Source of the DNA: Escherichia phage AV109
Reading direction: 5' to 3' (one strand)
DNA: 64,000 nt
Sequence record: OR352939.1
The position numbers and the translations under genes are program-made. Positions within the stretch are counted from its first letter, which is position 1, and each line of letters begins with the position of its first letter. Shown piece after piece: positions 35,497 to 49,184 of this stretch. The notes under the pieces are model-generated. The model was given only the letters and a program-made list of their open reading frames with translations. It made no database searches and was not told the DNA's origin.

Positions 35497-35505
35497 TGCT
35501 AAATG

Positions 35506-35534
35506 CAAAAAAGCCCCAACCTTTCGGAAGGGGC
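35506..35534 (-). terminator. rho-independent terminator, copy 1 of a repeated GC-hairpin family
   Basis: Minus strand GCCCCTTCC-GAAA-GGTTGGGGC followed by TTTTTTG; immediately after the stop of the 35540 gene. Confidence 0.55.
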
Positions 35535-35539
35535 TTTGA

Positions 35540-36129: not shown

Positions 36130-36157
36130 CAAAAAGCCCCAACCTTTAGGAAGGGGC
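36130..36157 (-). terminator. rho-independent terminator, copy 2
   Basis: Same gccccaacc...ggaaggggc hairpin plus U-tract, downstream of rI. Confidence 0.55.
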
Positions 36158-36164
36158 TAGTAAA

Positions 36165-48854: not shown

Positions 48855-48883
48855 CCAAAAAGCCCCGACCTTTCGGAAGGGGC
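48855..48883 (-). terminator. rho-independent terminator, copy 4, downstream of the tRNA region
   Basis: gccccgacc-tttc-ggaaggggc hairpin with minus-strand U-run. Confidence 0.55.
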
Positions 48884-48894
48884 TAAGCCTTGCG

Positions 48895-49010
48895 GCAACC
48901 TTGTCGGGGTTCCACCTGCTAAGGCAAGTGTTTGTACGAAACGCCGGGATTCGAACCAAGATAAAGGAGTTAACAGCTCCCAGTAATAACCTTTATACGA
49001 TGCACCATTT
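48895..49010 (-). other. tRNA-like remnant or small stable RNA candidate adjacent to the tRNA
   Basis: Minus strand has canonical T-loop GGTTCGAATCC and an anticodon-like stem-loop GGGAG-CTGTTAA-CTCCT, but I could not fold a clean acceptor/D/T cloverleaf. Confidence 0.25.
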
Positions 49011-49013
49011 GTT

Positions 49014-49088
49014 TGGTGGCCCTGGCTGGTTTCGATCCAGCTACCTATCAGTTATGAGCTGACAGCTCTCCCATTGAGCTACAGGGCC
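49014..49088 (-). tRNA. tRNA with CAT anticodon (Met or lysidine-type Ile)
   Basis: Hand-folded cloverleaf: 7-bp acceptor GGCCCTG/CAGGGCC, D-stem GCTC/GAGC, anticodon stem GTCAG/CTGAT with loop CTCATAA, T-stem GCTGG/CCAGC, encoded CCA. Confidence 0.85.
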
Positions 49089-49184
49089 TAAATAACTTTC
49101 TATTATGAAAGGCACTTGAGGGAGCACCTTTGGTAATAGAGGGTAGATTAATAATAACACATAATTCTTAAAGCAAATTACGTT

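Follow-up and report, generated by a model that had tools for sequence, protein, structure and literature searches.

A tRNA-Asn/rnaC hybrid pseudogene, probably left by a deletion, beside the single intact tRNA gene of a T4-type tRNA region

Beside the only tRNA gene called in the window, i.e., the whole 64-kb stretch of DNA that was analysed, lies a 72-nt tRNA-like element that is very probably a chimera left by a deletion. Judged from its alignment to both putative parents, nucleotides 1–57 of a tRNA-Asn gene are fused in it to nucleotides 117–139 of rnaC. The element is best regarded as a hybrid pseudogene, the scar of a deletion that ran from a tRNA gene into a tRNA-like gene for a stable RNA; it is a neat example of T-loop-mediated rearrangement, but an ordinary kind of genome scar. 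The features, all on the minus strand, are listed below with the basis of each.

49014–49088: intact tRNA with anticodon CAT and encoded CCA (ARAGORN, Rfam)
49008–49013: 6-nt spacer AACAAA between tRNA(CAT) and the hybrid; the same spacer precedes the intact tRNA-Asn of WFL6982, G2285 and AV111
48936–49007: 72-nt hybrid pseudo-tRNA, 5' part of tRNA-Asn plus 3' end of rnaC (Rfam, ARAGORN, cloverleaf energies)
48958–49007: segment matching tRNA-Asn(GTT) only, with the acceptor 5' strand, D arm, anticodon arm (48965–48981), variable loop and start of the T stem (alignment to WFL6982)
48951–48957: 7-nt junction microhomology GGTTCGA, in T-loop DNA (three-way alignment)
48935–48950: segment matching rnaC only, with the remaining T-loop bases, the 3' strand of the T stem and the terminal 3' strand CGUUUCGUA (identity to T4 rnaC)
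48884–48934: former 3' trailer of rnaC, with a 7-bp hairpin (48913–48930) and a small GCAA-loop hairpin (fold z = -1.96)
48857–48883: intrinsic terminator, GCCCCUUCCGAAAGGUCGGGGC followed by UUUUU (terminator scan, fold)
For comparison, T4 locus L004, 2909–3047: T4 rnaC (species 1 RNA), 139 nt (annotation)

The locus and its relatives

The 601 bases around the hybrid are 100% identical to Escherichia phage AV114 (OR352944.1) and 99.8% identical to the sister phage AV115. AV114 belongs to the Straboviridae, subfamily Tevenvirinae, genus Mosigvirus, i.e., to the RB69-like phages. Over 6.6 kb around the locus the window and AV114 differ at two positions, and elsewhere they share 98.3% identity; by these figures, the window is a third, very close genome of the small AV114/AV115 clade. 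The neighboring genes are homologs of T4 trna.2, trna.3, trna.4, ipI, 57B, 57A and gene 1, and the locus is therefore the classical T4 tRNA region.

The same locus is longer in other Mosigviruses. AV111 and WFL6982 carry, in this order, tRNA-Ile(CAU), tRNA-Asn(GUU), a homing-endonuclease-like ORF, tRNA-Arg(UCU), ORF150c, rnaD, rnaC and a terminator. PhAPEC2 has tRNA(CAT), tRNA-Asn, tRNA-Arg and ORF150c, followed by sequence matching T4 rnaD and rnaC and by a terminator, and ATK47 carries an explicit rnaC annotation. The order in T4 is tRNA-Arg, rnaD (species 2 RNA), rnaC (species 1 RNA) and terminator.

Comparison of these loci also revealed variation in the tRNA-Asn slot itself. The slot is filled, in different Mosigviruses, by two tRNA-Asn(GTT) alleles that look unrelated, one in PhAPEC2 (L003, 2795–2869; 74.6 bits) and one in WFL6982 (L007, 2507–2578; 53.6 bits). 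AV118 (L005, 1788–1887) and mogra (L006) hold in this slot, between tRNA(CAT) and tRNA-Arg, a 100-nt non-tRNA sequence that gave no Rfam match and no fold signal (z = 0.02). In the tRNA-Asn of AV111 (L009, 2507–2578), an A replaces a C in the 3' strand of the T stem; this change disrupts the G51–C61 pair and lowers the T-arm pairing probability from 0.90 to 0.007, and on these predicted pairings this allele may also be losing function. A different, independent deletion is present in G2285 (L008, around 2640), where the sequence that directly follows tRNA-Asn runs into the final ~25 nt of ORF150c; this deletion removed the endonuclease-like ORF, tRNA-Arg and most of ORF150c, and rnaD and rnaC are kept. 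In addition, a conserved hairpin, AAAGGUGCU...AGUGCCUUU, lies at window positions 49115–49140 (minus strand), about 30 nt upstream of tRNA(CAT), with a loop in AV114 and AV118 unlike that of PhAPEC2 and ATK47; it may serve in processing or termination after trna.2.

The intact tRNA(CAT) gene

ARAGORN called exactly one tRNA in the whole 64-kb window, at 49014–49088 on the minus strand with anticodon CAT. It scored 62.4 bits against the Rfam tRNA model, every pair is standard and the CCA is encoded, which bears out the clean tRNA that the first-pass annotation had described here. ARAGORN names the gene Met, from its anticodon; the product is probably the AUA-reading, lysidine-dependent tRNA-Ile2 rather than tRNA-Met, because the acceptor and D arm are those of T4 tRNA-Ile, the E. 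coli matches are tRNA-Ile and the acceptor resembles that of ileX. Specifically, the acceptor stem GGCCCUG/CAGGGCC, with C4–G69 and C5–G68, and the D arm are identical to T4 tRNA-Ile, and the best E. coli matches are prophage genes, all annotated as tRNA-Ile. The gene aligns with E. coli ileX in preference to metT; its acceptor start is GGCCC, as in ileX, where metT has GGCTA. C4–G69 and C5–G68 are determinants for TilS, and tRNA-Ile2 needs the TilS of the host. With the CAU anticodon, both of these pairs and homology to known tRNA-Ile(CAU), the gene has the features of tRNA-Ile2, and lysidine formation and charging with isoleucine are predicted from them.

Two parents and one junction

A BLAST search with the 78-nt remnant retrieved an intact tRNA-Asn(GTT) allele at the same place, behind the same AACAAA spacer, with 97% identity over the first 67 nt. 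This intact allele, referred to here as type B, is found in WFL6982, G2285, AV111, STP4-a, F2 and others. The 61 nt at 49007–48947 match the intact tRNA-Asn of WFL6982 (L007, 2507–2567) at 59 positions (96.7% identity, E=9e-24), and the 105 nt at 48957–48853 agree at every position (100%) with the end of rnaC and its terminator in AV118; given these two identities, the hybrid is not a chance resemblance. Read along the minus strand, the window follows the tRNA(CAT)–tRNA-Asn region of WFL6982 up to ...CTTGGTTCGA, with one difference in each gene, and follows the rnaC end of AV118 from GGTTCGAATCCCGG... (GGTTCGAATCCCGGCGTTTCGTACAAAC...) through the terminator T-run without any difference.

The two parental matches overlap in GGTTCGA (48957–48951), and if one mismatch is allowed the shared stretch extends to 11 nt, GGTTCGA(G/A)TCC (10/11). 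Upstream of the overlap, the 5' 57 nt of the hybrid differ from AV115 and from the intact genes by one substitution, G26T (48982). Downstream, the 3' strand reads CGUUUCGU, and the microhomology together with the rnaC-only segment (48957–48935) equals nt 117–139 of T4 rnaC at 100% identity. The trailer at 48884–48934 does not differ from that of AV118 (100% identity) and hardly differs from those of T4, PhAPEC2 and ATK47, and PhAPEC2 has a terminator annotated at the site homologous to 48857–48883. The former rnaC terminator would now end the tRNA(CAT) transcription unit.

A terminator module almost the same as that at 48857–48883, GCCCCTTCC.AAAGGT.GGGGCTTTTT, occurs on the minus strand at window positions ~35504–35535 and ~36130–36159, with 93% identity over ~30 nt. 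The module at ~35513 also reads as a hairpin on the plus strand and may be bidirectional.

The hybrid lacks an acceptor stem because a deletion with its junction in the T-loop exchanged the 3' strand, and not because of point-mutational decay. Of the two suggestions made initially for this sequence, a decayed second tRNA and one of the T4 small stable RNAs, the former stands in that the 5' 57 nt are near-unmutated tRNA-Asn(GTT), but the three-way alignment leaves no room for decay by point mutation. The latter stands in that the last 23 nt of rnaC, the trailer and the terminator are unmutated, but neither the window nor AV114 has an intact rnaC or rnaD. With homology over 23 of ~139 nt, and nt 1–116 absent, the hybrid is therefore not an rnaC gene, although it has kept the conserved trailer and the intrinsic terminator. 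The range 48895–49010, within which the remnant had been placed, does contain a second element, but 48895 falls in the middle of the rnaC trailer and the unit reaches the terminator T-run at 48857.

Structure of the hybrid

The hybrid has an anticodon arm, GGGAG-CUGUUAA-CUCCU (5 bp and a 7-nt loop; 48981–48965, with GTT at 48974–48972), and a T-loop, GGTTCGAATCC (48957–48947), whose sequence GGUUCGAAUCC agrees with the T-loop consensus. In a sensitive Rfam search of 601 nt, the tRNA model aligned to 48936–49007 end to end with 24.3 bits (E=0.011), below the gathering score of 29 bits of this model (RF00005), and ARAGORN, run on the whole 64-kb window, made no call at this position. The intact tRNA-Asn allele scores 53.6 bits and is called by ARAGORN. 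No 7-bp acceptor stem stacked on a 5-bp T stem is present in the hybrid: the acceptor has the mismatches U4.U68 and A7.C65 and three G.U pairs, and the T stem has the mismatch U50.C62. The anticodon-like stem-loop (GTT) and canonical T-loop without a pairable acceptor, as described in the first-pass annotation, are confirmed by the Rfam alignment and by this check of the pairs.

When the cloverleaf was imposed and mismatches were opened, the energy was -4.6 kcal/mol for the hybrid vs -19.1 for the intact tRNA-Asn. Pairing probabilities taken from the ensemble were 0.008 vs 0.95 for the acceptor and 0.002 vs 0.90 for the T stem. Taken as a whole, the hybrid, trailer and terminator fold no more stably than shuffled sequence (z = -0.26). 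At its 3' end, the hybrid has U at the discriminator (position 72 in 72-nt numbering), followed by ACAAAC, where the intact allele has G; CCA is not encoded and the 3' flank is the rnaC trailer. G73 is an identity element for AsnRS, and the hybrid thus lacks both the G73 discriminator and the 3' CCA of a tRNA-Asn.

Function of the hybrid and competing readings

The hybrid is most likely a transcribed but functionless trailer, as far as its predicted structure tells. Transcription from tRNA(CAT) would run on through the hybrid, as a 3' trailer, and stop at the old rnaC terminator. Because it has no stacked acceptor/T-arm helix, a U discriminator and no CCA, it is expected not to be aminoacylated, to be a poor RNase P substrate at best and to have no function of its own.

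An improbable reading, and the best of the competing ones, gives the hybrid a function as a new, chimeric stable RNA. In it, the T-arm/3'-end module of rnaC, which could direct 3' processing or stability, would display the anticodon arm of an uncharged tRNA-Asn, e.g., as a decoy that draws off a host anticodon nuclease or as an entry site for RNase P or RNase E in the maturation of the upstream tRNA-Ile. The module that it would use comes from a genuine RNA, since rnaC and rnaD are real late RNAs in T4 and abundant ones (PMC9697503; PMC3014915), and phage tRNA loci act as anti-defence loci (PMC13096335). T4 rnaC folds well (z = -4.57), and in its predicted minimum-energy fold, which is tRNA-like, the 5' end (CGA..CG) pairs with the 3' end (CG..UCG) beside a canonical T-arm, and T4 rnaC is accordingly predicted to have a tRNA-like acceptor/T-arm minihelix. 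In its GGTTCRANTCC loop, positions R and N differ from phage to phage, which is also the case in true tRNAs. Neither rnaC nor rnaD was assigned to an Rfam family when the local region and the T4 rnaC/rnaD region were searched at sensitive settings; T4 rnaC gave only a weak tRNA-Sec-like match of 17.5 bits, by way of the T-arm and the end pairing. That the 3' module of rnaC, its trailer and its terminator have been retained without a change (100% identity) would also suit a functional RNA, as would the persistence of the hybrid, with intact anticodon and D arms, in three near-identical genomes (the window, AV114 and AV115), which are too close to one another to show constraint. However, the helix that joins the two ends of rnaC is broken in the hybrid, the fold signal does not rise above that of shuffled sequences, and the junction is confined to one very small clade in the comparison with IMG/VR, JGI and 16 loci.

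That the hybrid is a functional, unorthodox tRNA-Asn(GUU), as the GenBank records of AV114 and AV115 annotate it, is less probable still. The end-to-end alignment to the tRNA model and the intact anticodon arm agree with the annotation, phage tRNAs are often weak-stemmed, and even the intact tRNA-Asn allele has a U.U pair in its D stem. But the score below gathering and the lack of an ARAGORN call speak against it, as do the two mismatches and three G.U pairs of the acceptor, the U.C mismatch of the T stem, pairing probabilities below 0.01, a 3' strand that is foreign (rnaC 117–139), a discriminator U in place of G and the rnaC trailer in place of CCA. The annotation as tRNA-Asn does not survive inspection. 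In a formal sense, the AV114 and AV115 records do supply the second intact tRNA that had been named at the outset as evidence against a remnant; the sequence so annotated is the one that ARAGORN passes over and Rfam scores below 29 bits.

An assembly artefact, with contigs mis-joined at the T-loop motif, is very unlikely. The junction does lie within a repeated motif, but this repeat, 7 nt exact or 11 nt with one mismatch, is far below read or k-mer length, and the junction occurs in three non-identical genomes, AV115 having G26 and the window differing from AV114 elsewhere. Decay in situ of a tRNA by accumulated point mutations would agree with the exact slot and 6-nt spacer of the intact sister tRNA-Asn, but has a negligible probability and is refuted by the sharp switch of parentage in the three-way alignment, since the 5' 57 nt differ at one position and everything 3' of GGTTCGA equals the end of another gene at 100% over 105 nt.

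Extent, direction and age of the deletion

In AV111 and WFL6982, the T-loop motifs of tRNA-Asn and rnaC are 1,424 bp apart, and an ancestor with their architecture would have lost this length. Relative to an AV111-like ancestor, these 1,424 bp comprise the 3' end of tRNA-Asn, the homing-endonuclease-like ORF, tRNA-Arg, ORF150c, rnaD and rnaC nt 1–116. When parental segments were compared to the window by local BLAST, only tRNA-Asn 1–61 (49007–48947) and rnaC 117–139 (48957–48935) matched; tRNA-Arg, ORF150c, rnaD, rnaC 1–116 and the 221-aa endonuclease-like ORF were absent from the window. The remaining 104 kb of the AV114 genome contain no further tRNA and none of the lost genes. If the ancestor was a G2285-like intermediate, the last step would be a deletion of only 348 bp. 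The rnaC T-loop of G2285 is GGTTCAAATCC, with only 5 nt shared.

Both halves of the hybrid have full-length parents in many phages, and canonical rnaC lies upstream of the rnaC 3' motif in all 16 other loci compared (8 from GenBank, 8 from IMG/VR). A scan of these IMG/VR and GenBank loci found no other fusion of a T-loop to rnaC, and the junction 33-mer had no exact match in IMG/VR or JGI metagenomes. AV115 has the same junction with the ancestral G26, and the window and AV114 have T26 (48982). The presence of the junction in AV115, the 16 canonical loci and the absence of the 33-mer therefore identify the fusion as a derived, clade-specific event. On the distribution of these alleles, G26T arose after the fusion.

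Proposed origin of the junction

We propose that the ancestral locus had the AV111/WFL6982 order, from tRNA-Ile(CAU) to rnaC and its terminator, and that recombination took place between direct copies of the T-loop, one in tRNA-Asn (GGTTCGAGTCC) and one in the 3' domain of rnaC, which is tRNA-like (GGTTCGAATCC), removing ~1.4 kb. The product would be tRNA-Asn nt 1–57 joined to rnaC nt 117–139, with the rnaC trailer and terminator behind. It is highly likely that such a single deletion in the Mosigvirus tRNA region made the chimeric pseudogene.

The T-loop motif is also the recognition core of a nuclease. T4 SegB is a GIY-YIG homing endonuclease encoded within the T4 tRNA cluster; its 27-bp site contains the core GGTTCRANTCC, usually followed by CCAR just before the cut, and it cuts many T-even tRNA genes, with a preferred site in a tRNA-Asn gene of the T2L type (PMC2330249). 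A 2026 study found that SegB breaks lead, through UvsX and UvsY, to rearranged tRNA loci whose junctions show microhomology (PMC13096335). In our sequences, the 11-bp core fits GGTTCGAGTCC of tRNA-Asn, GGTTCGAATCC of rnaC and the junction, and the junction is the only occurrence of GGTTCRANTCC in the 64-kb window. The intact type B tRNA-Asn reads GGTTCGAGTCCAAGTGCGCCAG, i.e., the core and CCAG. The PhAPEC2-type tRNA-Asn matches five of the five preferred-site nucleotides named in the SegB paper (our own comparison with PMC2330249); this preferred-site allele, T2L/PhAPEC2-like, is not the one involved in the present deletion. The T-loop DNA of tRNA(CAT) is an unusual GGATCGAAACC (A54, A60) that does not fit the core; the T-loop of T4 tRNA-Ile likewise does not fit, and the misfit of tRNA(CAT) could reflect immunity to SegB.

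The trigger might thus have been a double-strand break, introduced by a GIY-YIG homing endonuclease of the SegB type that a co-infecting T-even phage supplied. Had the DNA been cut at the 3' end of tRNA-Asn, resected and then annealed at the motif's next copy, which lies in rnaC, removal of the flap would have left exactly the observed junction. This trigger is plausible but unproven, and we hold it only tentatively, with the balance somewhat against it; a spontaneous short-repeat deletion without a nuclease explains the junction equally well. AV114 encodes no SegB orthologue, its best GIY-YIG matches being 35–41% identical.

When the tRNA-Asn gene was compared to the 1.5 kb downstream, the T-loop repeat was one of the three longest direct repeats with one mismatch (11 nt). 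It is not uniquely the longest in the deleted interval, since two AT-rich 11-mers are as long when one mismatch is allowed and there is an exact 8-mer; several other exact 7–8-nt repeats are also present. The ties and the exact 8-mer mean that microhomology alone does not single out the T-loop repeat.

WFL6982 carries a 221-aa ORF (L007, 2653–3318) between tRNA-Asn and tRNA-Arg, with its 3' end overlapping the start of tRNA-Arg. Considered as a SegB candidate, it was rejected, having no similarity to T4 SegB and only weak matches to NUMOD3, DUF559 and RAP (Vsr-like nuclease). From these matches and its location, it is likely a free-standing homing endonuclease in the position of SegB.

Implications

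These results correct the public records of AV114 and AV115, in which a truncated hybrid is entered as tRNA-Asn; these phages encode one tRNA instead of two. The AV114 clade consists of natural T4-like phages without tRNA-Arg(UCU), rnaD and essentially all of rnaC, i.e., a natural knockout. The functions of rnaC and rnaD have, to our knowledge, gone unexplained for decades, and comparison of AV114 or AV115 to the near-isogenic AV118, which has kept rnaC/rnaD and tRNA-Arg, is a ready-made natural test. The position of the breakpoint in the SegB motif suggests that the tRNA-like T-arm of rnaC joins in the same recombination as true tRNA genes. If true, this would help explain the very variable gene content of the T-even tRNA locus.

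Comparison with known systems

The intact tRNA(CAT) resembles T4 tRNA-Ile and bacterial tRNA-Ile2 in the acceptor stem (C4–G69, C5–G68), the D arm and the anticodon loop, and this likeness extends to the tRNA-Ile of E. coli prophages. It differs from T4 tRNA-Ile in the anticodon stem and the T arm, and its CCA is encoded, in contrast to that of T4.

Compared to type B tRNA-Asn, the hybrid occupies the same slot, 6 nt after tRNA(CAT), and is identical at positions 1–57 except for G26T. Its 3' 15 nt, corresponding to the rest of the T-loop, the 3' strands of the T stem and acceptor and the discriminator G, are replaced by rnaC sequence, however, and it is predicted no longer to fold as a cloverleaf. 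With the 139-nt T4 rnaC, it shares the last 23 nt, the ~50-nt trailer and the terminator at or near 100%, as well as the distal position in the tRNA transcription unit, whereas rnaC nt 1–116 and all of rnaD are absent.

As at the SegB sites and in the rearrangements already described (PMC2330249; PMC13096335), the breakpoint lies in the 11-bp core, the parental tRNA-Asn has the CCAR element, and the outcome is a microhomology-bounded change of the tRNA locus. The published SegB-driven events are homing, co-conversion and tandem amplification, whereas the event described here is a deletion, in a phage without a SegB gene.
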